A stretch of 64,000 nt of DNA from Octopus vulgaris. Its lineage: Eukaryota. Numbering within the stretch: position 1 is the stretch's first letter; each line of letters opens with the position of its first letter. Positions 40,804-63,954 of the stretch are shown in pieces. The translations under genes and the position numbers were made by a program. The stretch is taken from contig OX597819.1 in assembly GCA_951406725.2 (NCBI GenBank), forward strand, positions 115,444,001 to 115,508,000. The letters run 5' to 3'. Below the pieces are notes generated by a model. The model was not told the origin of the DNA. It did not search any database and saw only the letters and a program-made list of their open reading frames with translations.

Positions 40804-40947
40804 AAAAGATTTATTGTGGTTCGAGAACCAGATGGCAAACTACGGCATGCATCAGTTGATGAACGTGCAAGACTTATACAGACTTATTTTCCTTTTGAAG
40901 GGCGTAAGATATTGAGTCCCAAAATGTTTCAAGGGGAACAATTAGAG
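40804..40947 (+). CDS. MRPS22: MRPS22 coding exon 4
   Basis: [36 protein letters not shown] matches [35 protein letters not shown]; cag/gtaagt. Confidence 0.96.
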
Positions 40948-41416
40948 GTAAGTTTCCTTGGCACAAAAAAACCCCCCAGAAAGACCCAATTATTTTTCAG
41001 TTTAATTATAAAACAACAGAGTAATCTTCATTATTTATATTATTAAATTCGACAGATATATGTCCTCATCTTGTTTATTGTTTGTTTCCCCAAGACACCA
41101 GATGAAGGCTGGAGGGTATATCAGCCAAAACATGTTAACAACAAACAAGATGAGGACAAATATCCGTCGAATGTAAATAATGTACATAATGCCTCATCTC
41201 TTAACTATAAAACTGTATAGTAATCTTCTTTAATCAAGGCTACTCTGTTTCTGTTATTGTTTATTTATTTATACCTTTGATGTCTTGGTGGAATCAGTAG
41301 AACATCAGACAAAATGCCTTGCTATATTTAGAGATGTTCTTTTATGTTCTGTGTTCAAATTCTGTTGAGGTCAACTTTTGCTTTTCATCCTTGAAGAGGT
41401 CAATATACAGTTTGAG

Positions 41417-41828
41417 ACCTGTTAACGAAAACAAAACAAAAAGAACCAGCCTACTAGGTGTGAAAAAAATGTGTAGAAAACGAATATAAAAAAAATATTT
41501 GTGCAAACGAAGAGGACTTTTGGAAAATTCACAAGATCTGATATTTTCTTAATAACTTTCAGAAAAACGGATATCTTTCGATGAAATTTTATAGAAATAT
41601 CGTTCAAATGGCACAAATTACGATTATAAAGAAATTTCTAGTGAAAATGTTCTCCAAAGGGGTGGGGAGAGAGGCAGCCAAATTATACCTTCTTCTCGCA
41701 AATACTTGCCAACAAAGACGAAGATATGTGCATGTATGTTTGCACAAATTTTTGTTTTCATATTCGTTTTCTACACGTTTTTTTTTACAACTATTAGACT
41801 GTTTTTTTTTCCTTTTGGTGACCGGGCG
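41417..41828. mobile_element. MITE with long imperfect TIRs
   Basis: gtagaaaacgaatat..atttgtgcaaac vs gtttgcacaaat..atattcgttttctacac. Confidence 0.6.
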
Positions 41829-42366
41829 CTAAACTTTTGGTGACCTGGCTCATAAGAGCTGGTTTCCTTGCTGTATAGGTTCCCCATCTGGACGGGACGT
41901 CGGTCTGTCACAGGTGAGCTGCAAGATTCAGGAGGAAAGAGTGAGAGAAAGTTGTGGCGAAAGAGTCAGCAGAAGTTCGCCATCACTTTCTGCGGGAGCC
42001 GCGTGGAGCTTAGGTGTTTTTTCTCTCATAAACACATCACCCAGTTTGAGATTCGAACCCATGATTCCTCAACCGCGAGTCCGCTGCCCTAACCACTAGG
42101 CCATGTGCATCCACAAATGTTGTCATTGTTTAACCTCAGGTCAGTCCTGACAGAGCAAGCCTATGATCAATGGCTTCTAGTTATGACAGTTTCATTTTAT
42201 TCTCAAGCATTGTGTACTCTGAGCTACATTATTGAATGCATTTCTTTTTTTTGAAGGAGATGAAGCTTTATTTCTAGCAGGTTAAGCGACCACATACAAA
42301 CTTTCTAACTGGCTTGAGATTAAATGTATTTTCTTTCTTATGTAATTTTATAATTTTGTTTTTCAG

Positions 42367-42450
42367 AAATTACTTGAGAAAGGTTCCTTTCAGTACATCT
42401 TGGATAAAGCTTGTATCCAGTTTGAACCAGACCATCCTGACTACATTCAG
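42367..42450 (+). CDS. MRPS22: MRPS22 coding exon 5
   Basis: KLLEKGSFQYILDKACIQFEPDHPDYIQ (QFEPD motif); cag/gtaatt. Confidence 0.94.
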
Positions 42451-43081
42451 GTAATTGAATTTTATATATTCTTTTCTACTCTAGGCATAAGGCCTGAAAT
42501 TTTTGGGGAGGACCCCAGTACGCAACTGGTACTTAATTTATCAACCCTGAAAAGATGAAAGGCAAAGTTGACCTCGGTGGAATTTGAACTCAGAACACAA
42601 AGACAGACGAATTTTATATATTAAAACAGAAATAAGAAGGGCTTCCAGCTGTAGAAACTTTGCCAGATCAGATTGAGCCTGGTGCAGCCTCTGGCTTGCC
42701 AGTCTTCAGTTAAACCGTCCAACCCATGCCTGCATGGAAAGTGGACGTTAAACGAGGATGATGATTTAGTGGGAAAAGACAACATCTATGACCTCTACAG
42801 GGTTTTTGAGATGGGTGGGAGGAAAGTGAAGAAGAAACTATAACTTATAGGCTACAGTGATAAAAAAAACAAAAAAACGCATATTAAGGTTTTGATTTAT
42901 CTTCAGAACAGTTACCTGATTTACATACTTTCAACTGTGTGGGCTCTGTTAAAAGCACCCAAAGCCCAGATGATGGGGTTAATTGGGTGATAGATAAGGT
43001 CTGTCTCATAAGTGTGTGTGTGTGCGTGCATAGGTATTTTAATATTTTTTATATTTATCCTTATGCAATTTTATTTTCCAG

Positions 43082-43227
43082 ATAACACAAAGGACATATG
43101 AATTTATTCGACAAGTTGGTGCTTTTGATACACTGCGATCTACACGTCACTTTGGTCCAATGGTATTCTACTATATATGGTATAACAAAGTTGACCGGTT
43201 GCTGATGGACATGATTGAACGGAACCA
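43082..43227 (+). CDS. MRPS22: MRPS22 coding exon 6
   Basis: ITQRTYEFIRQVGAFDTLRSTRHFGPMVFYYIWYNKVDRLLMDMIERN matches LRSTRYFGGMVWY; phase 0->2. Confidence 0.95.
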
Positions 43228-43476
43228 GTAAATATTTGATTATAATTATTTCTTTCTCTCAATTCAGCACTAAGCCCTCCAGTAACTGTTTTCAAACTTT
43301 TTCATCATCATTGTTGAAATGTCCACATTTTCATGTTCTGAAGTCATTGCAACAGATTTTCTATGGTTAGAACCTCTTCCCAAACCTCACCAGTTTTCAA
43401 GCAAAGTGAAATTACCCCATGGCTAAGCATATTTCCACAGAATATTTGAAATGGAGGACACGGATTATATAAAATC

Positions 43477-44765
43477 GATTTTAGAATTCGACTAGATGAA
43501 ATAAAGTTTGGCTTTGTCCTGGGGAGAAGCACCATGGATGCTATTTTCATAGTCAGGCAACTGCAAGGAAAGTATTTAGCTAAGAACAAACTATTGTACT
43601 TGGCATTTGTTGATCTAGAGAAAGCCCTCAACAGAGTACCTCACTCTGTGATATAGTGATCTCTGAGGAAGCTAGGGATAGATAAATGGTTTGTGAAAGT
43701 TTTACAGGCCATGTACAGGGATGAATTTAGTGTACAGATAGGTGCTCATCATGGGTCGGTTCTCAGCCCTCTCTTATTCATCATTGTCCTCCAGGCCATA
43801 ACAGAAGAATTTAAGAATGGAAGCCCATGGGAACTACCATATGCTGTTGATCTTGCCCTCATAGCAGAATCTGTCAAAATTAGAAAAGAAATTCCAGGTA
43901 TGGAAACAGAACCTAGAATCAAAGAGTCTTAAAGTAAACTCAAGCAAGAACCAAGGTCCTACCTAGTAAGCAAGAAGTCAGATAGGACCCTTCATCCTTC
44001 TGGTAAATGGCCCTGCTTGATATGTAGGAAGGGTGTAGTCAAAAATCCCTCTCGGGGTACCAAGTGCAAGCTATGAACACACAAGAGGTGCAGTGAAATA
44101 GTAGGAAGGTAAACAGAGAAAGAAATGTTTTTATGCGGAAGTTGTACTGGAGCTATAAAGATCACATCATGGGAAACTGATTTCCTCAAATGCCCCTTTG
44201 GCTCTCTGGAAGTTGTAGATAATTTTTGCTTCTTAGGTGACCTAATTAGCAGAGGAGAAGGTTGTAGAGAAAGTTTAATTGCTAGAATTAAAATAGGATG
44301 ATGAAAGTTCAGAAACCTCTGTTAGCAACCAAAGGACTCCCACTTTGAATGAAGGAAAAATTGTTTGATGCATGTGTATGAATGTTGTATGGTTGTGAGA
44401 TGTGGGCCCTGAATGTGGAGGACATGTGATGGCTGGAGAGGAACAAAACTGGTATGCTCCACTAGATGTGCGATTGTCAGTGTGTATGTATGACAGAGCA
44501 GTGATGTATTGAGAGAGAAATTGACCATCAGAGGAATTATATGCAGTGTGCAAGAGAAGTGACTGCTGGTTTGATCATGTGATGCAGATGGATGAGGATA
44601 GCTACATAGAGAAATGCTGATCACTTGGAAGGAAGTTATGGAAGAGGGAAACCCAGGAAGACATGGGATGAATTACTGAAGGCAGATCTCAAAACACTGA
44701 ACCTTATGAAGGAGATGACAAACAACTGAGATATGTGGTGCATTGCTTTATTTGAGAAGACCTGC
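43477..44765 (+). mobile_element. Decayed RTE-like LINE RT fragment
   Basis: FGFVLGRSTMDAIFIVRQLQGKY..LAFVDLEKA, GSVLSPLLFIIV, ELPYAVDL, Cys-rich insert, GKPRKTW; many stops. A related fragment lies on the minus strand at about 39960-40190. Confidence 0.82.
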
Positions 44766-45061
44766 CTGCTACAACAACTGAGATCCTAATACCAAGGTGC
44801 CATGTAAAAAGCATTGGTGTGGGTGCTGGTGCCACATAAAATGTACCCAGTATGTTCTCTAAAGTGGTTGGTGTTAGGAAGGGCATCCAACTGTAGAAGC
44901 CAATTCAAAACAGACTATGGAGCCTTGGTGTGGCTCCTGGCCTTGCCTGTTTCTGTCAAGCTGTCTGACCCATGTCAGCTGGAGAATGAACGTTAAATGA
45001 TGACGATGACTGTAATCATCATCATCGTTTAACGTCCGCTTTCCATGCTAGCATGGGTTGG

Positions 45062-45199
45062 ACGATTTTGACTGAGGGCTGGTGAACCAGATGGCTGCAC
45101 CAGGCTCACAATTTTGACTGAGGGCTGGTGAACCAAATGGCTGCACCAGGCTCACGATTTTGACTGAGGGCTGGCGAACCAGATGGCTGCACCAGGCTC
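45062..45199. repeat. 46-bp tandem triplication inside a family C retroposon
   Basis: acgattttgactgagggctggtgaaccagatggctgcaccaggctc x3, 1-2 mismatches. Confidence 0.9.
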
Positions 45200-45451
45200 C
45201 AATCTTGATTTGGCAGAGTTTCTAGAGCTGGATGCCCTTCCTAACGCCAAAGTAAGATAGTAACAATATGCCATTTATGGATTTATGGATTTGATTTGAT
45301 TAATTGCTGAGGTCAGAATTTTAAAAGAGACAATATTTTATAAAGTTATTTATTTCATTGTTGTTGAGTGCTGATCAGTTGAGTGTTATTTAACTTCACT
45401 AGTTACAATCACCAACACAAAACATTCTCACAGTTTATCTTCACCTTACAG

Positions 45452-45557
45452 AATATCTGATGCTGCTGATGTGGTCCGACTTTATAATTTAGTTCATACT
45501 GATTCACCTTGTGCTGAGACTTGTCAGGATGTTGACAATGATCTTGACCTATTAAAG
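45452..45557 (+). CDS. MRPS22: MRPS22 coding exon 7
   Basis: ISDAADVVRLYNLVHTDSPCAETCQDVDNDLDLLK matches IDDATNLVQLYHVLHPD; cag/gtgagt; phase 2->0. Confidence 0.92.
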
Positions 45558-45894
45558 GTGAGTTAATTCTTTGTCCAGTTAATGTGTTCTTAATTTCTTT
45601 GTTTGGTCATCTAAAGAAAAAAAATTAAAGAGCTGCTGTGTGGTTTTTGATATGTCAGCCTTGTTACTAGTTACGGTGGTCCATTGAAAAGTGAGTACAT
45701 TCTAGCTGTACTTTTCGTAGGAATTCAGACATTGTAGAAGAGTCACCACCACTGCAACAACAAGACTTTGGCTGGCCTGAAGCTATAGTAGAAGATACTT
45801 GCCCAAGTTGCCACACTCTGGAATTGAATCCCAAACTATGTGGTAGTGAAGGACCACACAGACATACTTTTGCCTTTACATATATATATATATA

Positions 45895-46058
45895 TAAAAT
45901 TATAATTTAGGGGATGTAAGAGATATCACCACACCGGAAATAACAGCCTAAATTTGACTCTAAAACCACATTAAACATTTAATGTGGGTTTAGAGTCAAG
46001 TTTAGGCTGCTATTTCCAGCGTGGCAGTATCTCTTAGATACCCTAAATTATAATTTTA
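45895..46058. repeat. Near-perfect about 160-bp palindrome
   Basis: taaaattataatttaggg..cacattaaa-ca-tttaatgtg..ccctaaattataatttta. Confidence 0.85.
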
Positions 46059-46138
46059 ATAAAAATTATTACCTTTGAAGGCTTTTATATTCCCATGCTG
46101 GCCACTTGATAAAATCGATATATAAATAATGATCTTAT

Positions 46139-46173
<35 letters not shown>

Positions 46174-47187
46174 AATGTAAATAGTGTACACTTATTTTTA
46201 ATATGTTCCTGCATTCACTGCAAGATTTTGTTTTTGAGAACAAAATTCTTCCTATAGACTAAGTGAGTAAAAACATGTGGTTCAAGTGTCATTGACAGAC
46301 TGCCAAACATGGAGCTCTTGGCATGATTGTACTTTCTCATTAAGAGATATCATCTCAGTCATTTACGAGTTTCATGCTTCGGATAAACAGGTGATATAAT
46401 ATTACTGTATTTATTCATATAAAAGTAACATTACTTTACTCTTGATTTTTAACGGAGTAAAAAAAATTGGGTGGAACCTAAAACTACGACGGAAAATATT
46501 TTGTACCCACAGTTAACACCTATACGCAAGTAAGTAGTGTATTCACTTCACATGAAAGGGACGCAACTTGCTAACTGACCGTCTGTGTGTAGGGTTGTCT
46601 CCCTTATAGCTGCACATGGGGTCATATGGTGTGAAATACTAGTTAAGAAAGTTTCATGAATAAACAGAAGAAAAGTCTGAATATCAGAAAAGTCACTTGT
46701 ACAACTAGCTGAATTAAAGTGATGAATCAGATCATGGAATAATATGAAATAGGGTGAATTAATAAGGAAGATGGAATTTGGTGGAGTGAAAAGTTTGAGA
46801 GTTTAAATAAACTATAAATAGTAAAAATTAAAGAAAGTGCAACTGTTTGGTTTATGCTTACGTGATAAACATTGACTGGATATATCTACATGAACTGTGC
46901 TTCTGTCTGAGATAGATATAATTTTATAACGTTTGTAAACTGTACAGTGTTAAATTCATGGCATGAAACATAAGTATCAATGTTTTATCTTATACAAGGA
47001 CTATATTTACTGTAGCTCCAGGCTAACCAAAGCCTTGTAAGTGGATTTGCAAGATGGAAACTGAAAGGTCATCTTTACGTGTGTGTGTATACACACATAG
47101 TTATGGTATATTCTGTAAAGAACGTAGTAGAGTGTTGCATGGAAACAATTGTAGTGATTAAAAAATAAATGTCCAACTTTTTCAATG

Positions 47188-47249
<62 letters not shown>

Positions 47250-47662
47250 GGAGGTGCTGAAAAGTTTCTGGCTTGAAGGAAAGACCTGGTTGGAGACTCA
47301 ATCTTCCAAGATCATCATCATCATCATTTTTAAATGTCCGTTTTTCATGCTGGCATAGGTTGGACAGTTTGATTGAGGTCTGGCAAGCCAGTTGGCTGCA
47401 CCAGTATGATTTGGTAAGGATTCTCCAGCTGGATGCCCTTCCTAACACCAACCACTCTGAGTGTGTAGTGGGTGCTTTTTACATACCACCTGCATGGGAG
47501 CCAAGGCTTAGAAAAACTGAAGTACTACTGCAATATGTGTGTGAATCTGAGAGAGGTATATGTTCAATAAAATCATAATCAACTGATCCTTCTGTAATTT
47601 TCTTTAACCCAAAGCCAGGAACTCTTCCCTGATATGTGTGTGTGTATGTGTATATATATATG

Positions 47663-47694
<32 letters not shown>

Positions 47695-49087
47695 TATGAG
47701 AGGGATGACCCTTATGCTAGAAGTAGATCTGCTATGGTCTTACCACTAAGAAATGTTCTCAAGAAAAATTTAGTAAACAACAGAACGTAATTGAGCAAGA
47801 CAAAAGAAAAGCAACAAAAATATGGATTATTCACATACATGTTTCGCTATTAACATAATATGCAATTTTACTCACGCAATTTGTAGATCTTTGGTGTGAC
47901 CGTCCAAACAAATATAATTTGCAGAACTATATACTAGGATGTCTGCACAAAGTTGGACTTGTATATAGTGCTACCTATTACACTCATGGTTACTATTCAA
48001 ATATATATAGATATGTGAATGTTTCTCCTTGTCCTAACATCACATAATAGTTGTAAATGCATATCACTATTATATAAGCAGTCATTCATTTTCAGTAATC
48101 TGTGAGAATATGGCAGGCCATAGGGAAATACTCCCTTGTTTGGAAATAGGTTGGTGACAAGAATAGCATCTGTCCCTCAAAAATCTGCCTCAGTAAATTC
48201 TGATCAACTCATGCAAGTATGGAAAAGTGAATGTTCAATACAATCATGATGATTGTGACTCTGCTTAGCCATAGTGATGCTATAAAGCAGTTGTTGGAAG
48301 CCAATATACTTACATTTCAATATGGCTCTGACGAAGCTATAAGATGTCACACGAGTACTCAGTTCTGTAAATGAGTGTTACTGTTACACAAAGCAATGTC
48401 ATTCATTTCTTGTATTCTGTGAAACATGTTGGTCATGTAGAAATATTCTTTACTACTCTAGGCACAAGGCCTGAAATTTTGGGGGAGGGGGCCAGTCGAT
48501 TAGATTGACCCCAGTATGCAACTGGTATTTAATTTATTCACCCCGAAAAGATGAAAGGCAAAGTTGACCTCGGCAGAATTTGAACTCAGAATGTAAAGAC
48601 AGGTGAAATACTGCTAAGCATTTCGCCCGGTGTGCTAACATTTCTGCTATCTCGCCACCTTGGTCACATAGAAATATTACCTTGCTTGGACTCAGATGAG
48701 TATTGACAACAGAATGAGAAATCTGGCTGTAGAAAATCTCTCAATAAACTCTATCTGATGATGATGATGATAGATGAATGGAAAGCAGAATTGGTAGAGC
48801 AATGGATAAAATATACTATGGTTTTTGCTTACGTCCTTCCTTTCTCAGGTTGATACTGCCTCTCTGCCTTCCAAGAGCAATAAAATCAGTATCAAAAGTG
48901 GGGGTTTTGACTAAAACCCTTGAGGCTATTGTTCCAGTGTGACCATGGTCAGATGACTGAAACCAGTTAAAGAATAAAGGATCTGAAGTATCGAATTCTG
49001 ATAAACCATTGTAAAATTCCCAACCCTTGAAATTCCTGTGGCATTTTAAAAATTTGTTCTCTTCATGTTTATTTTCTTTTTTCACAG

Positions 49088-49195
49088 ATCTTTTGTGTTA
49101 CCAGTTCCACAGAGAAGCCTCGCCTAGAGTTGACTCTGCAAGTGCATGAAGACAAACTAAATGGTGAAGAATATCAAGAATCCAGTGTATCATAA
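49088..49195 (+). CDS. MRPS22: MRPS22 coding exon 8 (stop)
   Basis: Long pyrimidine tract + cag; IFCVTSSTEKPRLELTLQVHED..SVS* (ELTLQ motif); AATAAA at 49214-49219 and 49285-49290. Confidence 0.9.
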   Translation: MFCVTSSTEKPRLELTLQVHEDKLNGEEYQESSVS

Positions 49196-50369
49196 TGAAT
49201 TTAAAAATGAAAAAATAAAAAGAACAATTATTTGCAGTTATCTAAAATAGATATTTTTTATCAATGAACTTTACGTAGAAATCAAATAAAAATCATCTTT
49301 AAAAAACATTTTGTTTATTTACTTATGTATTTTGATGTTATATATTTCTTTTTATACATTATATATTTACGCATTGAAAATTTATATTTTCACATATATA
49401 TTTTTGACGTGATCGGACTGAGGATGCATCCAGCTGGTCTTGAGATCATCTTTCTCCCGGAAAAGAGACTGTTGATGATAATTAGATGCAGTTCCATGCA
49501 AAAACTCCAACTGAAGCCGCTCATGGTCTTTGCAATTTCCAACATCATGTTTTCCAAGAACTCCTTTCTAGGCTTTTGAATCTTAGCCTACTGTGGTGTT
49601 GATGCCACCAAGGATGATGACCTTGTCATCCACTGGAGTGTCTTGTGGTAGGTTGTGAAGGTCAGTATAGTACTTTTTTTTAACAGGCTAAAATTTGCCT
49701 TTGCAGAAGAAAACCTCCCAGAATCTTAGCTTGGTTTTAAAGCGAACAGGAGCCCCACCAACTTGGTCTTTATTCTCAGACAGCTCCAAGAGAAATGCAG
49801 AGAGCAGAACAAAGGACTGTATATTACTACTGTCGACTTCTAATAAAATAATGCCTTGCCATGAGAGTTGTGTTTACTCTTGCAGTTTCTCTTACATACT
49901 AGTTTCTCTTGGCCAAGTAGCTTCTGCGCAGCAAGAAGTGATGCATTGCAGGGTTGTCTCTGTGTGTGCAACAAAAGCAACATCATCTGCAGAGAGCATG
50001 GCTGGCTTGTTCTAGTGTTTTCGTGTGAAATTACTCGAGCTTCAGATATCACGGATGTTTTGTTTTAGCTTCTGGGAAATTAACGAATAGCTTTTTGGTC
50101 CGTTGTGCCAAATTCAGATGGCACTTTGGGCAGTTACCTCTAATAAAATAGCGCCTTACCATAAGAGCTGTGTTTACTCTTGCAGTTTCTCTTGCGTACT
50201 GTCATTTTTCTTGTTCCACTGTTTTCATCGCCACTGGCATATCCGCCATAACAACAGCCCTTTCAACAACAAACTGTTAAAGATTTGTTGATAGACATTG
50301 CAAAGCTTAAGAAATATTTGAACTTGGAATCTCTTGAAGTAAAATGGTATATCAGGCAGTGATATTGTA

Positions 50370-52254: not shown

Positions 52255-52505
52255 AGTCTACACTGATGTTGATAGCCTGTCGCATGAGTCCGTGCAGGCA
52301 ATCCTAACGTCTGAATCGAACAAGCAGCGTACCCCTGTCAAGTTTGTCCCCCGCCTGCTGGACCACTGAGCAGAAAAAATATCGCGTCGAAATCTGTCAA
52401 GATCTCCGTCAGCGTACCGCTGATGACCCGTCCTTCATGTCGAGAATCATCACCAGTGACGTTTACGGGGACGACTCTGAGACGAAGCATCAGTCGCCAC
52501 AATGG
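52255..52505 (+). mobile_element. Second fragment of the same mariner family, opposite orientation
   Basis: Reverse-complement match to about 53740-53975 (KFVPRLL..EICQDL..DDPSFMSRIIT). Confidence 0.8.
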
Positions 52506-52559
52506 AAGAAAATATTTACCGTGAATGGTAGAGATCTAACGCGATCAGAAAACTATTAT

Positions 52560-53325
52560 AAAATATCCACTGTAGGACTATAAAAGTATCTTGTTTAAAA
52601 ATTATTGAAAATTTGTATCAACGACTACAAATCGCATACAAAAGAAAAAGAGCTCTCTGTTTTCTGTGAAGGAAGCTACAAAATAGAGTTAAAAAAAAGA
52701 TACCGCAATGGCCGATAGATATGGAGAAAAAAAGAAAATCAATAATTGCTAAAATGTTAAAATCTAAGCTAAAAATGGAGCCTTGATGAAACGATGACCA
52801 TCAAGTCGGCCAATAGCTGAAAATCCCCCCAAATAAAGAAAAGAACAAGCAAAAATAAACAAAAAATGAATATAGAGGAAGTAGATAAAACCAATTTGCA
52901 ACAGCGATAGAGAGGCACAGGACTCAGAACAGAAACTTGAAGGGTTCTTCATTACAACTTAAGAGCAAAACTCAAAACAGAAACCATAAAAAAAAAAACA
53001 TAATGCAGCAAAATAATGTAACTATAGAATCCGTGGCGTTGAGGAAGAAACAACCATATTGTATTTTGCTGCCCAGGGTAAACTAAGAAAGAATATACTC
53101 ACAGACATGACAGAGCTAGGACTTAAATACTCTGGAAGTTATGCATTATAGATACCAGTAGAAAAGAGGTAGCATAAACAGATATCGCAAAAAGTCGGAG
53201 AATGAGAATGCCACTATACTCTGGGATATGCCAATATGCATACACAAAAAGAAAATAATCAAGATCAAACTACCTGATATTGCTCAAGGGCCACAAGGAA
53301 AACTATGCTTTCTAATCCGTAAGTT
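52560..53325 (+). mobile_element. Decayed R4/Dong-like (restriction-like endonuclease) LINE 3' fragment
   Basis: Broken frames give ET..HIV.CCP..KEYTHRHD and ENENATILWDMPI..PDI motifs. Confidence 0.6.
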
Positions 53326-54350
53326 TGTCGAAAACCTTCTGCGATTCGCTCTGAATCTCGGCAACAGTGTTAAAACGGCGACCTTTGAGCTGCATTTTCA
53401 TCTTGGGAAAGAAACGGAAGTCTGCAGGTGCTAAATCTGGCGAATAGGGCGGGTCCGAAGTGATACCATGAATGGGGAGAGCTCGGTGTACTGATGTTGC
53501 AACGAATCCTATTCTTCATGCTCCAGAGATCCGACTGTTTTCACCGAATGTCCTCCCTCAAACGCTTTAAAACGTCGTGGTGGAATTCTCAATTGACAGT
53601 CTAGCTCTGGAGGATGAATTCTCGATGCACAATAACATGATGTCAAAAAAAGAAAAAGCCAAAAAAAAAACTATTAGCATGCTCTTGATTGAGCTGCGGC
53701 TCTGTCGTGCTGTCTTTGGTCGAAGAGATGAAGACCTCATCGTCTCAGAATCGTCTCCGTAAACCCAACTCTCGTCACCAGTAATGATTCCCGACATGAA
53801 GGATGGGTCATCAGCGGCACGCTGACAGAGATCTTGACAGATTTCGATGCGATGTTCGTTCTGCTCAGTGGGTTAGCAGGCGGGGGACAAACTTGTCACA
53901 GGCACGCCGCATGTTCAATTCAGACGTTAGGATTTCCTGCACGGACCCGTACAACAGACTATCAACATCAGCAATGTCGTTGATTGTCCTCCTATGCGCA
54001 AGTTGATGAATTTTTTCCCACATTTCCGGGGTTGCCGCTCGTGGTGGGTCTTCCAGATCGCTCATCGTCTTCCAGGGACGTTCTTCTGCGTTTGAAGCAG
54101 CTGTGCCTCTCGAAACATTGCCTACGATACAATGCCTCGTCGCCGTAAGCTTGCCGAAGCATGCTCAATGTCTCTGTAACAGACTTCTCAAGTTTAACGC
54201 AAAATTTTATGGTGGACCTTTGTTCCAACTTCCTGTCCATGACAAAATCGCAGACTACAGCAAAAACGTGATCAGAAAGACAGAAATTCCATAAGTTGTG
54301 AAGTAAAAACAGCGATGTCACTCGGCACACCGTTTCATGAGGGTCACTAC
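53320..54350 (-). mobile_element. Mariner transposase pseudogene (Mos1/SETMAR-like)
   Basis: EQRSTIKFCVKL..QAYGDEAL..LEDDERSGRP; KFVPRLLT; IITGDESWVY; PPYSPDLAPADF; frameshifted. Confidence 0.9.
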
Positions 54351-54768
54351 TAGCTCTTACTGCCCATTTATATTAATGAATCGAGTGTGCTATCAATAAA
54401 CATCTTCTAAAAAGTGGTGTTCTCCGAAGACGAAATACAACAGTGATTGACGTATTCACTTTCGAATCCACTGAAACGTATTGAAAGTGAATTTATACGT
54501 TCAATATCTAAATGTAAAGAAGTGGAAATAGAAAAAAGCTATATGAGAGCTGGACATATAAAAATCCCTATACTTCCCTTAAAAACCGTACACATCTTGC
54601 GTAGAGAACTGTCAATAGTGTAAAAATAACAAAATGCAAACAAGACACATCGCAAACTCAAGGCACAAACACCTACTCTCGGCAGTGCAGTGAAAACACA
54701 CACAAAAGAAAAATAATAATAATAAAACTAGTGAAAATGATAATAATATAGCGAGTTTATACTCCTGG

Positions 54769-55189
54769 AGGCGCAGGAGTGGCTGTGTGGTAAGTAGCTT
54801 GTTTACCAACCACATGGTTCCGGGTTCAGTCCCACTGCGTGGCACCTTGGGCAAGTGTCATCTACTATAGCCTCGGGCCGACCAAAGCCTTGTGAGTGGA
54901 TTTGGTAGACGGAAACTGAAAAAAGCCCGTCATATATATGTATATATATATATGCGTGTGTGTGTTTGTGTGTCTGTGTTTGTCCCCCCAGCATCTCTTG
55001 ACAACCGATGCTGGTGTGTTTATGTCCCCGTTACTTAGCGGTTCGGCAAAAGACAACCGATAGAATAAGTACTGGGCTTACAAAAGAATAAGTCCCGGGG
55101 TCGAGTTGCTCGATTAAAGGCGGTGCTCCAGCATGGCCGCAGTCAAATGACTGAAACAAGTAAAAGAGTAAAGAGAGAGAGAAAGAGAG
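54769..55189 (+). mobile_element. tRNA-derived SINE family A, full-length young copy
   Basis: ggcgcaggagtggctgtgtggtaag (A box)..gggttcagtccc (B box)..(AT/GT)n..gtaaaagag tail; 19-bp TSD taatatagcgagtttatac (54744-54762 / 55190-55208). Other copies about 2415-2810(-), 7938-8312(+), 8876-9254(-), 11834-12233(-), 21974-22800(+, interrupted), 28510-28918(-), 30511-30890(+), 57875-58236(-), 60730-61160(+). Confidence 0.9.
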
Positions 55190-55547
55190 TAATATAGCGA
55201 GTTTATACACAAAACTTCATTTTAAAACCATTGTTTCCCAATATTAGGATCCGTAGTTAAACTTTTGTTGCTCATGTATTGAACAATTTTAGCCTCTGCT
55301 CTACTTACATAAGCATAGAAAGCAACTACTGGTCCAGATCACGTTTCATATCTTCACTTTGTTAAAGGTACCATGCGTAAATGGTACAAATTGCACGTAA
55401 TTAATAGATAAGGATGGTGTGAGAAAGGCCTGAGATGAGACAGGAACAGCAGAGTGGCAGAGAGAATGGAGAGAGTGTGAGGGTGAGAAGTGGAAAATTG
55501 GGGCAAAGAATGGATCGTAGTTAGGTTGAATTATTTATTGCCCTTTA

Positions 55548-56021: not shown

Positions 56022-56202
56022 CGGACGTAAGCAAATACGTCGATGTCGCTGTGCTTGTGATAATAATATATCAGAGAGACATAGCCATATATAGAAAGAA
56101 ATCCGTCATCGCTGGTATAAAAACGAATTTACTGAAACTGCCCTGTCAGTACATTTCATACACTTTTTAGGCATCATTTGTCCCACTATATCACCAGTGA
56201 AA

Positions 56203-56307
56203 ATGTCAATGTCTTTAAAGAAATTTATGTTCTCCATAAATCTTGTATCTTTGGGATTTTTCTTGCTGATATCGTTTCAATGTATAGTCACGTTGGCAGA
56301 AGCTAAG
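56203..56307 (+). CDS. iGluR-like gene, putative first coding exon (signal peptide)
   Basis: MSMSLKKFMFSINLVSLGFFLLISFQCIVTLAEAK: basic n-region, hydrophobic core, A-E-A cleavage motif; AAG|gtaggt phase-0 donor; upstream ttttag acceptor at 56170 suggests a 5' UTR exon. Confidence 0.68.
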
Positions 56308-56707
56308 GTAGGTTGATTCTAAGTTCATATATTACATTTCAAATATATAGATAAAACAATTTTTCTCACTCCATAATACTCTATTAACCTTCATCCCCCA
56401 CCCCAGCATTCCATGAGGATATTACATTTTTTTGTCAGTCTTTATATCTTAATTTCAGTTTGTAAGATGGAGCCTTTTCTCAGAATATAGTTCCCCTAAA
56501 ATTAGGTGTTTTAAAATTCCTTCATCATACTAGCTACGTCACTTGTTCACTTCATTTTGCTACATCGTAAGAGAACTCCTAAGTTCACAAAATTCGCTAA
56601 GTCTAAAATCTCAACACCACTCCGATTGTCTCAACAAGACATATACAAAATTTGTTAAAGAAACTTTCCAGATACTCTTAAAGCCAGGAACTTTTCAGCA
56701 TCCCCCC

Positions 56708-56759
<52 letters not shown>

Positions 56760-56831
56760 CATATTACTCTACCTCTGGTATTTGAGTACTCTTTTTTTCC
56801 ACCTTGTTTCTCATTTATGTGTTTACTCCGG

Positions 56832-56900
<69 letters not shown>

Positions 56901-57105
56901 ATATTGAGAACGGGAGAAGAGCAGTTAAAAAACCCCAACTCCATGCGTATTGAATGGCCTTTTTTAAAAAATTAAAACAAGGGGGTACGAAAATGATGTA
57001 AGGCGAGCGAGATAAATGAAGTCTATTTTAAGGTTAGCGTGGCTAATACAAAACTAGTTTCACGTCCAACTATGAACGAAGACGCATGGCTTCTCTCTCT
57101 TTTAC

Positions 57106-57155
<50 letters not shown>

Positions 57156-59269
57156 ACATGCATGTGTGCACAGATATGAATATGTATGTGTGTATGTGCG
57201 TAAGTTATATATAGGAATCCACTTCGACACCGAAGTGTTGCGTTCTTGAAAAGATTGTTGTGATGCGAAATTCCGTAGCGCAAGAGTCTTTCCCACCCCT
57301 AATTTGCGTAATATATATATCATAGTGCATTGTGACAATTTCCCTTCCCCACAAAATGTCAAGTAAAAAATAATAAGAGAAGTAATACAAGCATATTCGC
57401 CCTTGAAAATATCAAATAACAGGCAACGGTCATATAAACATTTGAAGAAAATTGCATTCCGGAATAAATAAGATTACAGTGATGTAGGAAAAGTATTTAC
57501 CACAGAAGAAGTTGGTTACTGGGTTGTCAAAAACATTAAGGCAACTGGCAAAAGTAATTGATGTGGAAGTTAAACCTACAGTAAGAGACTTTTGGTAAAA
57601 AATATTAAAAAATATAGGCGCCCTGAGAAATATAATAGTGTCACAGGTTAGAGTTAAACTCTCGTTTGTTTACATGATATGTATTATAGCATCAATCAGT
57701 CACTGAAATTTGAAACAGCTGTAAAGATCTATCTTTATGTGGTCATATTGAATCCGTGACGAAGGGTTTCCACCAGTAGAAAGCCTGCTTCATATTGGCA
57801 AATGGTGTAGATTGAATTGTTAGTGTCGCATAAAGGAATTTCATCAAATAAGGAAGTGAAGTTGTAAGAAGAAGCTTTTACTTGTTTCCGTCATTTGACT
57901 GCGGCCATGCTGGAGCACCGCCTTTAATCGAGCAACTCGACCCCGGGACTTATTCTTTGTAAGCCCAGTACTTATTCTATCGGTCTCTTTTGCCGAAACG
58001 CTAAGTGATGGGGACGTAAACACACCAGCATCGGCTGTCAAGCAATGCTAGGGGGACAAACACAGACACACATACATACACGCACACACATATACGACTA
58101 CCAAATCCACTCACAAGGCTTTGGTCGGCCCGAGGCTATAGCAGAAGACACTTACCCAAGGTGCCACGCAGTGGGACTGAACCCGCACCATGTGGTTGGT
58201 AAACCAGCTACTTACCACACAGCCACTCCTGCGCCTCATTAATTTTGTCATTATTTTCGTATATTGTTACCACTGTAAAAGTTACTAAGTTTTGATACTC
58301 TTAGCAATATTGTTAAATTCTTTCTGCGTGTTAAGCCTTTGTGAAGCATGAATTCTGACATCTAACGTAATTCGTTTGCAATTCCATTATTCTTCATTTT
58401 CACTTGATTTCCTTTTTCCAGTCATCGAGATTAGGAGTAATCAAGGTACCAGATGTATTTGATGGAAATTCTAGCTGTGATTGCCGTAGACAAGAACATT
58501 CTATAGAAAGTAAAACGGTAGAATCCATAAAAAACAATGTTCTTTGCCTACAAAAAATAGTGGTCTCATTACTTCGGATGTCAGAATGGAAACGAGGAAA
58601 TAAAAGGTAGAAAAGTGATGTCAAAGGATGATAAGATGTGGAATGAAGAACCGTATGATTAAAGTTAGTTGCTACGTTTCTGTCAGTTGAACTGCTGCAT
58701 GCATAAACAAAGTAGAAACCGAAGAGGGAATGAATGTCGAAAATATGGAAAAGCAAGGTCAGTTGACTTGAAGCAAGGACAATAGAAGGTTGGGGTGAAG
58801 TGGGTGAGAGGGTGGAAAAGAATGTTGCGCAGTTGTAGCAATAACTGAAATCACACCTTACAGTCCTAAAAAATGAAAGATATTTTAGATTGTGTAGTTT
58901 TAGATACACTAAATTTAGGAAAGAGACGGGATAGAGCAAATGGAAAAATTTTGAGTATAATTTTGCTGGATCTTTCTTCTACATAACGGTAACATTAAAA
59001 AGGGGATGAAATAGGTACCAACAGCAGCAGTAGCAGCAACAGCAGCAGCAACAACAACAATAACAAGGTAGATACAACTTCAATAAAAGTGATGTTACAT
59101 GTTAAATTGTCGCTTCCATGTCTGACAAGCAGTATAACTTCAATTCCGTAACCAAGGCAACACAAAACCTCCAAGACCAGTTTTCAGAATATGTATGTTT
59201 GTTGTCAGTTATCTAATATTTCAAAATTTAATATTTTTGTGAAATATTTTATGAGATAATTATGAAGCA

Positions 59270-59433
59270 ATATTAATAGTTATCGCCAAGCTAACATGGC
59301 AGTCCATTATAATGGACATAGGTTCGTGTGTCACATAGCCAGCTAGATGCGATGGCCTCTTGAAGCTAATCAACCGCAGCATTCGTCCTATATTTCTGGA
59401 GTGTCATATTAGCTTGGCGATAACTATTAATAT
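59270..59433. mobile_element. Small MITE / inverted repeat
   Basis: atattaatagttatcgccaagctaa ... ttagcttggcgataactattaatat. Confidence 0.75.
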
Positions 59434-59521
59434 CCAGTACCGCTGCCGTACTCTCCTTTAGAGAGACTTAGAAATATTAATATTTCTATTTATGAAGCAA
59501 TGATTTCTTTTTATTTTCTAG

Positions 59522-59560
59522 AATCCCGCGAAAAAGGTTATCAAGGTTTCTACGTTCCAA
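59522..59560 (+). CDS. iGluR-like gene, 39-nt exon (start of S1)
   Basis: Pyrimidine tract + tag; NPAKKVIKVSTFQ resembles the first S1 strand (KTVVVTT/LRVTT); gtaagt donor; phase 0->0. Confidence 0.75.
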
Positions 59561-60894
59561 GTAAGTGTTTTTTATTGTCTCTTGTCCGGGTTCTAAAAGA
59601 ATTTATAATTTCTGATGAATCGCCTACCTAATTAAGAATATTATCTCTATTCATACTGACGTCTATTAATACTCAAATTAATATAAAATGTTTGTTATTT
59701 ACATCAGAAGCTTTTGATAAATATCTGAAACCAATATAAAAGTCTTTCATTCTATAAGATTTATACGAAGCAGAAAACTTAGTGACTTAATAAATCTTAA
59801 AGACGAATACATCTGGCTGGAGATGGTTGATTATTATTGTTGCTGTTTATTTCCAGGTCAACCCTGATCAAGCGGACCTTGGATCGAAGGCATTCTAACC
59901 CTGATCATCCAGATTTTTCTCTAATATCTTATATATAGGGAGTACCTTGTCTAATACTTCCTCTTATCAAGACGGTATAATATGATATGAAGATTTCATA
60001 GTTATTTCTAATAGATCGGGCGAACGAGGTGTGAATCCCTTGTTAGCAACCGACATTCATGGCCTGGAAGTGAAAGGTTTATAAAATCGTAGAAACAGAA
60101 GCAGCTTTTCAAATATAAGCCATCTCAATTATTACTTGTATTAAGGACGATATAAAGTAGCAAGATTATAGTACTATCTGCACTAAAGTATTTAGCTTTA
60201 TTCATATTACTTCCTAGTATAAAATCTGTCTGAATCATTGTAATAAATTGTATGCTAATTACTTTTACTCATTAACAACTTTTCTGGTATCTAAATCGGA
60301 AACCATTATAATTTTAACAAAGAGAGAGTGAGAGAGGAGAAATGAACGACTTACGTATTCTGCTCTGCATGAGAAAAGAAGGGTTGCTGTCAACGTACTT
60401 AAAATAGTGAACTAAAATACTTCATTTAAAATGTTTATATGTCTGTTATCAAGGGCTTGATAAATACTGATAAAAAATATAGCGAGAAGGCCTAATAAGA
60501 CAGAAGCATGTCTAGGTTGTTACCATACTTCATATCTACAGCTTGCCCTCTGGTTAAATTTCTAATTCAATATAATTTAATATAAATACCAGAATTTGAA
60601 ATTAAACTAATACATAATTTGAAAATAATTTTCAATCATTATCTTTAATGCAGTGTGCGGCACAGAGCGTTTAACTTCGAATCAGAAGGTTGCGTTTTCG
60701 CGTCTCGGCGTGGTTGATTATCTTTTATGGGTTTGGGCATGCCCTTGCGGTAAGAAGCTCGCTTCTCAACGAAATGGTTCTGGGTTCAATCCTACTGCGT
60801 GGTGTCTTGGGCAATTGTTGTCTACTGAAGCCCGAGACTGATGAAAGACTTATGAGTGGATTTGGTAGGTGGAAACCGAAAGGAACCTGCCTTA

Positions 60895-60976
<82 letters not shown>

Positions 60977-61429
60977 AGTGTGTGTCTGGCTTTGTGTCTG
61001 TGTTTGTACCCCTCCCGCGCTTGACAACCGGTGTTGGTTTCTTTACATCTCCGTGACTTAACAGTTTGGAAAAAAGAGACTGATAGGTTAAGCACCAAAC
61101 TTATTCTATTCTTTCAAATAAAAACCCTTCAGGACGGTGTCCAATAATTAAAACAAGTAAGTATGACGCTTATGAATTTAAGTAATAATGGCGCCTTCAT
61201 GCTGCTAATGTTTCGTTATAATTTTCAGTTACCAATAGGGTTTAAATCAATGCACACTGTGAGTTTGTTAATGAAACGTTTACCAAGACTATAAATCTGA
61301 AGCTATCTGCTGCTTTCTATACATTATCACCCATGTAACTGACAAATTAGGTGACGGTTACATAGTTCTGTGTCTTTTTACTCGACAGCTTTATATCCTT
61401 GCTTAATGGGTTGTTTTTGTTTTCTCTAG

Positions 61430-61621
61430 ATACACCCCTTTTACATGGAAGAAAAGCATGAAAGCGGAAGAGAACAGCATGGCTACATAGTTGACATGTT
61501 AGCTGAGATGGCTCCATTAATGAATGTGACCTTTGAGATAAACTTAGTGAAAGACGGACACTTTGGACAAATTCGTGAAGATGGAAACTGGACCGGAATG
61601 ATTGGAGAAGTTATATCAGGG
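61430..61621 (+). CDS. iGluR-like gene, S1 ligand-binding exon
   Basis: IHPFYM..GYIVDMLAEMA..FEINLVKDGHFG..GNWTGMIGEVISG is a classic non-NMDA S1; tag/gtaagg. Confidence 0.93.
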
Positions 61622-61749
61622 GTAAGGCGACTTGAAACTACTTTGAAAATATATCCTTATCAACTGAGAAAGATATTGATAAACACGATAAAGCTCTGAA
61701 GCTAATCTCTCTAGCGTATATATATAACCTCTCTCTACTCCTTTAAAAA

Positions 61750-62435
61750 AAAAACCCGCTTCTCTAGCCACGCCTCTTTTCTCAGCCGCTGCTTACATCA
61801 CCGCCTCATCCCTAAATGTTTCCGCCTCCATTTCCACCCCGCTCTCCACTCTGCTTCATCCATCCTACCCATACACCATACCACATCTTACCGCCTTATG
61901 TGTGCCACCATTCGCTCCAATCTCTCTAAAATACATACCATCGACCGCCTTCTCCTTCCTGCTTTTTCCATCTTTTTCTCCTCTCTGCCGCCCTTCCATG
62001 CTCACAACATGTTGCGCTATATAATTAATTTACATCATCTCTTTCATCAATTTCTTGCCAACACCAAACTTCGTAAACTCCACTCACTCCTCCATTCCAT
62101 CACACCCGACGCCACTACCCCAACTCCTCCACTACCCTTCTCCCCCCTGATAGGCTCCACCCACCCACACCTAACTCTACCTTCCCTCCAAACAACCCCC
62201 CACACATCCTCACCCCCTCTCCCCAGACTTCCACCAGCCCTGACGCCATGATAGATCGTTAGCTACTACACACATTTTTTTTCTCTCCTTGTTTTTTCTG
62301 TGTACCTTTCTGTAGAAGAGCGTAGGCTCGAAACGTAAAATACTTTTTCTATTCCTGAGCGCTATACTAATACATCTATTTGTTTGTACACCACCTGCTT
62401 TCGTCTTTGTTTATTTTCGAAAACTTTCCCTTTAT
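61750..62435 (+). mobile_element. Penelope-like element remnant (C-rich segment + pLTR-like end)
   Basis: C-rich low-complexity segment followed by ctgtagaagagcgtaggctcgaaacg hammerhead-like motif and T-rich end. Confidence 0.5.
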
Positions 62436-63608
62436 ATATATAAATGAGTAACAGTAGAGGTACAGGTCTAAATCCATTAAGGTCGTTTTTAACGATTCCT
62501 TTAATTGATTAATGAAAACATTACATCATTATAAAGAAACTGTTTTGGCTGCTGAATTCATGAACTTCAAAATTATGGACATTCAAAATGATTTAACACA
62601 GTTTAAAATCCACGGAGCAAAACGTTGTCAGTGATCCTGCTTCTATTTCAGTAGACAGAATCTAATTGTCTTCATTCACTGCATGAATATCATTCGGCCG
62701 GTAAAATATATTTTGTTGAGATTAACGGTTCAACATGACGAAATAGCCAGAAGAAAGAGGCTGAATGAAAGTGGGATAATGACAATGACCCGGTCAAACG
62801 AATGTATTCTCTTGCACGCGTGTGTATGTGAGAGTGGTTTGTGTGAGTGTGTATGCATGAATGGGGGCGAGTGTGTGAGTATGTATGTGTGGGTGAGCTG
62901 AAATATATATATTAATAAATAAAATAAAACATATGCATATATATAAACATATATGTACGTACCTACTTCTACATGTACATATACACGCATATATGAGTAC
63001 AGGACACCAAAAGGACGTCGAACACAATGAGAAACGAAAACATAGACACAAACCAAAGGAACTGGACATTTTTTAAAAACAACAAAAAAATAGAGTACAG
63101 GACAATTAACACAAAGAAAAAACCCCTTCTTCAGTCGCTATGGTTTCATCTACTCTACGTTTCGAAGGATAAAAGCGAGACTTATCTTCGACAAGAAACT
63201 TTCCTTCCTGCGAAAAGCAAATCAATTAAAATTCTTGGATTTGAGATGCAAGATTCCTGATGTGAAATCGTGTGTTGAAACAGATATTGTTGTATGGCCA
63301 TATTTTTTTGGTCAAATAAACACACGCACTTTATATTTGTCATTCACTCGTTTATCACCGTTCTTATTCTAACTCATGTCCATTGTTCGGAAATCTTTCG
63401 TCACACATCTGTGACCTCTTCAGTGACACTTTCCGTCTCCGTGTGTTCTCTTCTTTCACTTATCTTGTGCGATTTCGGTTTCAAATACAAGAAACTGTAC
63501 TCATTCTTATTTTCTTAAAATTAATAACCTCTAACGTCCTCTTTGAAGTTAGAACAAACGATATTGGTCTAGTTTCCATTCTAAAGGAAGTAATTATTTC
63601 ATTTTCAG

Positions 63609-63954
63609 CATGCTGATATTGCTGCCGCTCCACTCACCCTCACTTTAGACCGTTTGAAACATGTGGATATGTCTTTTCCATTTCTAAGTTCTGGATATAA
63701 AATCGTTATTAAAAAACCAGATTTGACACAAGTGACACGTGGACTTTTCATTGTTTTAAAACCATTCACAACTCCTGTTTGGTGTTTCATCATATTAGCT
63801 TATGTACTGACCGGTAGCTTTCTGGCAATAATCGGTCGAATTAGTCCGTATGAATGGACAAACGCGTCGGACGTGGATGTTGATTCGGAAAAACGTAGCA
63901 GTTTTAATTGTATGAATAGCTTTTGGTTCACCTTCAGTACATTCATGTGGCAAG
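63609..63954 (+). CDS. iGluR-like gene, S1 end + M1 + M2 pore-loop exon (gene continues beyond window)
   Basis: HADIAAAPLTLTLDRLKHVDMSFPF..IVIKKP..PFTTPVW..RISPYEW..NSFWFTFSTFMWQG; cag/gtaagt, phase 0->1. Confidence 0.95.

Follow-up and report, generated by a model that had tools for sequence, protein, structure and literature searches.

An Octopus vulgaris ionotropic glutamate receptor gene without an amino-terminal domain and its likely affinity with the Phi (GluF) class

The stretch of the Octopus vulgaris genome analyzed here (64,000 nucleotides, G000:C6:115444001-115508000, henceforth the window) contains the first four exons of a gene for a subunit of the ionotropic glutamate receptor (iGluR) superfamily. 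A first-pass annotation, made from the letters alone, had claimed that the product lacks the whole amino-terminal domain (ATD): an exon for a signal peptide, a 39-nt exon and an exon for the S1 segment of the ligand-binding domain (LBD) appeared to join directly, with no ATD-like exons in the introns between them. The locus therefore raises the question of whether so reduced a receptor is genuine and, if so, to which class it belongs and what it might do. The gene proves to be real and spliced, and its product is an iGluR subunit devoid of an ATD. It is likely an old molluscan and lophotrochozoan member of the Phi class (GluF), already annotated and named, and is no cephalopod novelty. What seems to be unreported so far, in those parts of the literature that were available (the scope of all our statements on published work), is the clade-wide loss of the ATD, combined with a tryptophan in the filter and an eroded gate, along with a possible link to the vertebrate kainate-binding proteins (KBPs).

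A spliced receptor gene without an amino-terminal domain

With 160 kb of downstream sequence added, the gene resolves into six exons separated by five introns, all of them GT..AG (Table 1). The 494-aa translation is identical throughout (494/494) to an Octopus vulgaris database protein named "glutamate receptor 2" (P0007), and at 483/494 positions to a protein of O. sinensis (P0001). Both PF10613, whose match begins at residue 41, and PF00060 score above the cut-off, i.e., the S1-M1-M2-M3-S2-M4 architecture of the superfamily is present. It is preceded by a predicted signal peptide (residues 1-35) with a hydrophobic stretch at residues 8-26, in which Ala32-Glu33-Ala34 fits the -3/-1 rule for signal-peptide cleavage; in an AlphaFold2 model (mean predicted local distance difference test score 80.1) an N-terminal helix (residues 13-33) leads straight into S1 at residue 40.

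The splice joints were sought in contigs from sequencing runs: 20 of the 24 listed runs, from 10 studies, contain the stretch, none is recorded as RNA, and the evidence for splicing consists of spliced joints in contigs only, not of depth. The joint 56307^59522 was seen in at least two of the four runs of a first set and in all four of a second (four studies, three coded organism labels), that is, in at least six of eight overall; the joint 59560^61430 is present in contigs of all four runs of the second set, and 61621^63609 in those of all four runs of the first. Since exons 1 and 2 are nearly identical (105/105 and 38/39 positions) in a tandem paralog described below, contigs across these two exons alone cannot separate the two genes; one contig (X13) covers exons 1, 2 and 3 without mismatch, including exon 3 bases that differ in the paralog, and another begins at 56184 and extends through exon 3. 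As a separate observation, contigs X2 and X12 depart from the genome at window 63722-63753, in codons of the S1-M1 linker, and likely represent alleles or the paralog. Sequence and contig joints thus bear out the first-pass exons, their canonical splice sites and their phase. Joints from the exon at 56203 are present, and among the joints and loose contig ends listed none leads from 59522 or 61430 to upstream ATD-coding exons; a rare additional 5′ exon is improbable.

Searches for an ATD at the locus came back empty, in agreement with the claim that the whole domain is lacking and that the introns hold no exons for it. The genome has 82 PF01094 matches, not one of them on contig C6; as a partial control, five of ten other iGluR-like loci have an ATD match at most 0.5 Mb upstream, those without one being the loci on C3, C13:17.2M and C7:46.3M and two on C24. 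A custom profile built from 20 ATD-bearing relatives, Phi proteins included, reached a best E of 1.6 over 11,016 open reading frame (ORF) pieces from 244 kb around the gene and a further 90 kb, in a search run without a built-in positive control; tblastn with two ATDs as queries reached 2.2 over 224 kb. The 494-aa protein itself has no PF01094 match. Upstream, on the same strand, the neighboring gene is MRPS22; its spliced contigs extend to 49279.

Relatives and class assignment

A profile search over 1.84 billion representatives, with no length filter, yielded 165 aligned proteins from the best 150 matches and earlier matches, of which 163 entered a FastTree phylogeny; the rows dropped were near-duplicate cluster members, P0001, P0009 and P0038 (before alignment), three multi-domain models and two fragments. 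The focal gene falls in a clade of 44 members, of which 30 have a signal-like segment directly before S1, 13 are short or truncated at the N-terminus and one bears a 111-aa leader. An N-terminus of at least 300 aa occurs in none of the 44, as against 65 of 99 proteins in the AMPA/kainate group, and an ATD in none; a Pfam check for the ATD was negative for all 16 ATD-less candidates and positive for all four long controls. All 16 longer proteins recovered are ordinary iGluRs with an ATD, at 28-35% identity. Named members of the clade come from Octopus, Argonauta, Sepia, Babylonia, Aplysia, Batillaria, Potamilus, Ylistrum, Ostrea, Liolophura, Tubulanus and Owenia, and the N-terminus of P0051 is common to the Lingula protein A0A1S3HBC4; the ATD-less architecture is thus seen in bivalves, gastropods, a chiton, nemerteans, an annelid and a brachiopod. 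The notion of a possibly lineage-specific class gives way before this spread across molluscs and other phyla, and before the names that the class already carries (GluFIV, Phi).

The octopus genome itself has further such genes. A tandem paralog lies 54.7 kb downstream; it repeats the six-exon structure and codes for an ATD-less protein of 496 aa that is identical at 451/494 positions. Argonauta likewise has two such genes, with adjacent accessions. The 43 differing sites (of 494) include a cluster just ahead of the residue equivalent to R485 of GluA2 (T124D, L125S, D126N, K129R), with others in S2, and suggest that the two proteins may be tuned to ligands differently. At residue 15, in exon 1, the two genes here share Val and the two O. 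sinensis proteins share Ala, a split by species, unlike 39 sites that group by paralog, and this pattern together with the identity of exon 1 hints at local gene conversion between the paralogs. A third octopus gene with a WQG pore, on C3, shares the exon breaks at S1, the pore and M3-M4; over the three exons found, identity to the ATD-less P0042, whose cluster includes a cuttlefish protein, is 50-66%, and the custom profile gave no ATD match in 90 kb, the first exon not having been located. The C3 gene is likely GluFI.

A name for the focal gene is supplied by P0010 (XP_014783750.1), which shares a 90% cluster with P0007 and is 90% identical to the focal gene and 92% to the paralog. Zeng et al. 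2021 (PMC8437780) list this protein as GluFIV_Obi in their Table S10, name XP_005107294.2 (P0041 in the present set) GluFI_Aca, and found Phi in all seven molluscs that they examined; orthology with GluFIV_Obi places the focal gene in their subclass IV. Their O. bimaculoides model differs from the focal protein in being without exons 1 and 3 (405 aa), and the available text on GluFIV discusses the ligand residues and transmembrane domains, not ATD loss, the tryptophan filter or the gate. The Phi class was defined by Ramos-Vicente et al. 2018 (PMC6307864), who report no member with Q586, a weaker SYTANLAAF motif, and an ATD of 331-422 aa in 10 of the 14 founding GluF models; the other four are without a predicted signal peptide and look partial. 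Like these deuterostome founders, the focal protein has a residue other than Gln at the Q/R site (W226), a weak SYTANLAAF and a tree position apart from AMPA, kainate and delta. Unlike them, it has no ATD, a feature typical of the founders of a class defined by phylogeny, and its filter reads W-Q-G where theirs reads L/F-Q-S. Within our set, P0100 matches the founding member GluF_Apl at the N-terminus, the only part that can be compared, and P0100, P0119 and P0067 carry PF01094.

Phylogenetic placement against AMPA, kainate, delta, KBP and IR25-like rows, a check that the first-pass annotation had proposed, pointed to Phi, with KBPs adjacent. In a 37-row tree, 15 lophotrochozoan ATD-less rows are monophyletic (99/99) and join the ATD-bearing echinoderm and hemichordate Phi proteins and the hemichordate short forms (95/98); this grouping in turn joins the vertebrate KBPs with moderate support (92/96), and stands apart from AMPA (100/97) and from kainate plus IR25 (100/99). 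Quick trees agree on the Phi grouping (Shimodaira-Hasegawa [SH] support 98 and 96) and put KBPs beside it (SH 87). The ATD-less lophotrochozoan clade, the focal gene included, is thus likely an old branch that groups with deuterostome Phi, as judged from trees whose rows include neither divergent tuning ionotropic receptors (IRs) nor any identified cephalochordate GluF, and in which rows were labelled AMPA-like, kainate-like, IR25-like or delta-like by motifs and, in a few cases, database names, the two IR25-like rows by motifs. In a 69-row tree (LG+G4; bootstrap not settled, 0.980) the IR25-like rows nest inside the kainate group. Approximately unbiased (AU) tests rejected an affinity with AMPA (p 2.3e-5) or with the two IR25-like rows (p 3.6e-4), and mildly rejected a single origin of all ATD-less forms (p 0.029 and p 0.037); these p-values are weakened by the groups having been named after the first FastTree. 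Other AU tests, which moved only three cephalopod rows, are near-trivial.

Four other assignments were considered and set aside: the AMPA class, by the AU test and by the missing ATD, Q/R Gln, SYTANLAAF and Asp four positions beyond the Q/R site (+4); the kainate class, by its own clade with IR25 and by the missing ATD; membership of the vertebrate KBP clade, which excludes the focal gene (100/100, 69-row tree); and descent from the IR25a lineage, by the AU test against the two IR25-like rows.

The state of the ATD requires three changes on a 39-row tree, a count that cannot tell loss from gain; given that AMPA, kainate, NMDA and Phi receptors all have ATDs, loss is the natural reading. Among hemichordates, the ATD-less proteins of Ptychodera and Glandiceps group separately, and three ATD-less Phi-like hemichordate proteins (P0025, P0027, P0058) group with ATD-bearing Phi of the hemichordate type (92/95, 37-row tree), which suggests a separate loss of the ATD there. 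More iGluRs in which a signal peptide adjoins S1 were found outside the 44-member clade (P0087, P0123, P0090 and P0145, the last of them a Logan protein), and the loss may be more frequent still. Separately, P0039 of Lineus longissimus (989 aa) has two ATD-less iGluR units in one chain and is either a natural fusion of two subunits or the product of a gene model that merges tandem genes. In O. vulgaris, two loci with long single exons from M1 to S2 (Table 1) are divergent iGluR or IR-like genes and near-outgroups.

Other names in use may cover the same genes. Singh et al. 2025 (PMC12226733) recognize, besides a Phi clade of lophotrochozoans, a "group II" that is uncharacterized and has mollusc, annelid, cephalochordate and Ptychodera members; their sequence file contains ATD-less relatives and not the focal accession. 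Two mollusc papers (among PMC11682238, PMC12837371, PMC10642201 and PMC5225553) use "GluR-m" names for mollusc-specific clades, and these genes may be the same as those of the ATD-less clade.

Ligand site, pore, gate and possible function

The closest solved structures are AMPA receptors, both by sequence (GluA2, E 8e-80) and by fold (Foldseek matches to AMPA-receptor LBD-transmembrane domain [TMD] chains, E 1e-37, 33% identity). The glutamate contacts of GluA2 are kept, namely R485 (R127), G653-S654-T655 (G296-S297-T298) and E705 (E347), as are P478 and T480; the Y450 position is aromatic (F93), and the C718-C773 pair is present as C360-C412. G653 and T655 constitute the glutamate signature of Ramos-Vicente et al. 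(PMC6307864). The α-carboxyl-binding arginine singled out by the first-pass annotation is R127, in APLTLTLDR, and RISPYEW is present as well. The description as AMPA/kainate-like accordingly holds for the S1 and M1 motifs; it fails in the tree and in the pore and M3 gate, where, unlike GluA2, the focal protein has Trp for Q586, so that the pore loop ends W226-Q227-G, Arg for D590 at the +4 position, and LYIGSMAAH for SYTANLAAF, with I257 and H263 and with the alanines of A621 and the lurcher position A622 retained. The dimer-interface positions E486 and K493 read L128 and F135.

These features run through the 44-member clade: R485 is kept in 42, an acidic residue at 705 in 42 and both disulfide cysteines in all. 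At the Q/R site 32 members have Trp, 11 have Leu and one has Gln, and 43 have Gln at the next position; such conservation of the filter implies that the pore apparently still matters. At the +4 position, which is acidic in 93 of 99 AMPA/kainate rows, Arg stands in 15 members and Asp in two. Across phyla, then, the ligand site and the filter are conserved and the gate is drifting. The +4 Asp is needed for polyamine block in GluA2 and GluE1aA (PMC12226733).

The interpretation to which we give slightly better than even credence is that the protein would be the glutamate-sensing subunit of a heteromeric, non-synaptic, weakly Ca2+-permeable Phi (GluF) cation channel without an ATD. Glutamate would be bound via R127, G296-S297-T298 and E347, and assembly would proceed through LBD and TMD contacts alone, the likeliest partner being the tandem paralog, the GluFI on C3 or another AKDF subunit. 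Closure of the LBD clamshell would pull the M3 gate, drifted but with the two alanines retained, and the pore, with Trp at the Q/R site and Arg at +4, would admit less Ca2+ and lack the acidic site that polyamine block requires. ATDs serve in synaptic anchoring, and a subunit without one would forgo such anchoring and might act extrasynaptically or outside the nervous system. A precedent for obligate partnership is found in duplicated invertebrate AMPA subunits, which often function only as heteromers (PMC13520880).

Several points weigh against this proposal. The exact SYTANLAAF occurs in none of the 44 clade members (mean 3.75 of nine positions), as against 81 of 99 in the AMPA/kainate group, and a gate so eroded would fit a non-gating protein equally well. 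The dN/dS between the two octopus paralogs is 0.49, a sign of only moderate constraint. On the side of phylogeny, inclusion of two half-length NMDA fragments lowers support for the lophotrochozoan set to 80/67 in the 39-row mixture tree, which leaves open its join with Phi, just as the 69-row tree, which also includes half-length NMDA rows, leaves open the backbone. In the published record, much of the branch to which Phi belongs is called uncharacterized by Rosano et al. (PMC10861852), and there is no Phi gene among those expressed in the available text of a 2026 survey (PMC13648236).

A rather unlikely alternative, which nonetheless deserves attention, is that the protein is a non-conducting glutamate binder or modulator akin to KBPs, which buffers glutamate or damps other iGluRs by co-assembly. 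KBPs bind kainate and are not known to give homomeric current. The focal protein resembles the vertebrate KBPs (chick KBP/GLRK and the fish and frog U1-type proteins) in the signal peptide joined to S1, in size class (KBPs have 450-490 aa), in a hydrophobic Q/R residue (L-Q-G in KBPs) and in an altered M3; KBPs stand beside Phi in the trees, KBP-type clusters are the top two Atlas feature matches (0.98), and a gate that is eroded and variable next to a retained ligand site is what such a protein would show. A Lingula AMPA paralog, moreover, lowers the currents of other subunits (PMC13520880). Identity to KBPs is ~31-32%, and they form a clade of their own. Against the KBP-like reading stand the W/L-Q-G filter kept across phyla and the title of a 1997 paper by Villmann (cited in PMC5384001), according to which KBP pore domains are reportedly functional. 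Insect tuning IRs, too, gate in heteromers by way of an M3 equivalent of their own (bioRxiv 10.64898/2026.09.30.755715). A further reading is that the protein is a minimal iGluR, able to form glutamate-gated homomeric channels with no partner: it has the full complement of LBD and TMD elements, the C360-C412 disulfide, and A621 and A622, and homomeric function is documented for several invertebrate AKDF, delta and epsilon receptors (PMC13520880, PMC13648236). We regard this as improbable, in that four tryptophans at the filter together with I257 and H263 in M3 would be hard to fit into a normal homomeric pore, and the dimer-interface E486 and K493 are replaced, even if AMPA receptors deleted for the ATD still gate.

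More remote still is the idea of a tuning IR with a chemosensory role in suckers or the olfactory organ, where it would pair with IR25a. The loss of the ATD and the drift of the gate are both IR traits, protostome IRs having a reduced ATD and a divergent M3, and an IR cluster is the fifth Atlas match (0.96). The tuning receptor IR75b, however, keeps half an ATD (bioRxiv 10.64898/2026.09.30.755715), unlike the focal protein, which has none and retains the full set of glutamate contacts. Grouping with the two IR25-like rows, the IRs that the trees sampled, was rejected, and those rows nest in the kainate group; the first-pass view that this is not a divergent IR is thus upheld, and we think the tuning-IR role very doubtful. 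We give practically no credence to the view that the ATD-less form is an artefact of annotation, or that a longer gene yields it as a minor isoform. A possible acceptor AG at 56169-56170, with the frame open to the ATG, would permit it; set against this are the spliced contigs, upstream in-frame stops in both tandem paralogs, the empty ATD search of 244 kb, the signal-like segments directly before S1 in most of the clade with no ATD in any member, and MRPS22, which splices to an exon at 49086-49279, ~6.9 kb upstream.

The interest of the gene lies in that Phi is the one named bilaterian AKDF class without a reported functional test in the available parts of two recent accounts (PMC10861852, PMC13648236). 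The sampled lophotrochozoan branch, being ATD-less throughout, with a tryptophan filter and a drifted gate, offers natural test cases for iGluR assembly and gating without an ATD, and its adjacency to KBPs suggests concretely how the latter may have arisen. Tentatively, and with some doubt, we suggest that the Phi lineage could be a bilaterian-wide source of minimal iGluRs, in which the ATD was shed independently at least three times (in the lophotrochozoan ancestor, in a hemichordate paralog group and in vertebrate KBPs), the Q/R Gln gave way to a bulky residue and the gate eroded. Were this so, a class thought to be lost would survive in vertebrates as the orphan KBPs, and the GluF genes of the octopus would offer tractable subunits of a glutamate channel, as yet undescribed, that does without an ATD. 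We found no statement of clade-wide ATD loss in molluscan Phi/GluF in the literature as available, where Andouche 2021 and Villmann 1997 may say more.

Features of the gene and its surroundings

Table 1. Positions of the exons, introns and neighboring features (window positions unless a contig is named)
Feature	Position	Strand	Remarks
In-frame TAG 5′ of the start codon	56092..56094	+	Sequence; inside X2 contig 56036-56198
Exon 1, coding part: start codon and predicted signal peptide	56203..56307	+	105 nt, phase 0, GT
Intron 1, GT..AG	56308..59521	+	3214 nt; contig skips of 3214
Exon 2: 13 aa, first S1 strand directly after the signal peptide	59522..59560	+	39 nt, AG/GT
Intron 2, GT..AG	59561..61429	+	1869 nt; skip of 1869 in 4/4 runs
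Exon 3: 64 aa, S1 of the LBD including F93 (Y450 position)	61430..61621	+	192 nt; PF10613 E 1.4e-14
Intron 3, GT..AG	61622..63608	+	1987 nt; skipped in 4/4 runs
Exon 4: end of S1 (P120, T122, R127), M1, M2 pore loop	63609..63954	+	346 nt, phase 1; PF00060 and PF10613; GluA2 alignment
Exon 5: M3, S2, M4	G000:C6:115513824-115514572	+	749 nt; 5.8 kb past the window end
Exon 6	G000:C6:115517852-115517905	+	54 nt; 9.9 kb past the window end
Tandem paralog	G000:C6:115554945-115579127		L005-L008
Third WQG-pore gene	G000:C3:23966551-23972665		L028, L029
Divergent iGluR or IR-like gene	G000:C13:17155417-17156238
Divergent iGluR or IR-like gene	G000:C6:2477868-2478653
MRPS22	40801-49279	+	PF10245; spliced joint 45557^49088
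Broken ORFs	52300-54372		One piece checked, no Pfam match
High-copy interspersed repeat copies	54770-55190, 57875-58236, 60760-61200		Very high contig depth

Intron 1 contains simple repeats and the second copy (at about 57875-58236) of the high-copy interspersed repeat, which resembles a short interspersed nuclear element. The broken ORFs between MRPS22 and the focal gene resemble, by their motifs, a mariner-type transposase.

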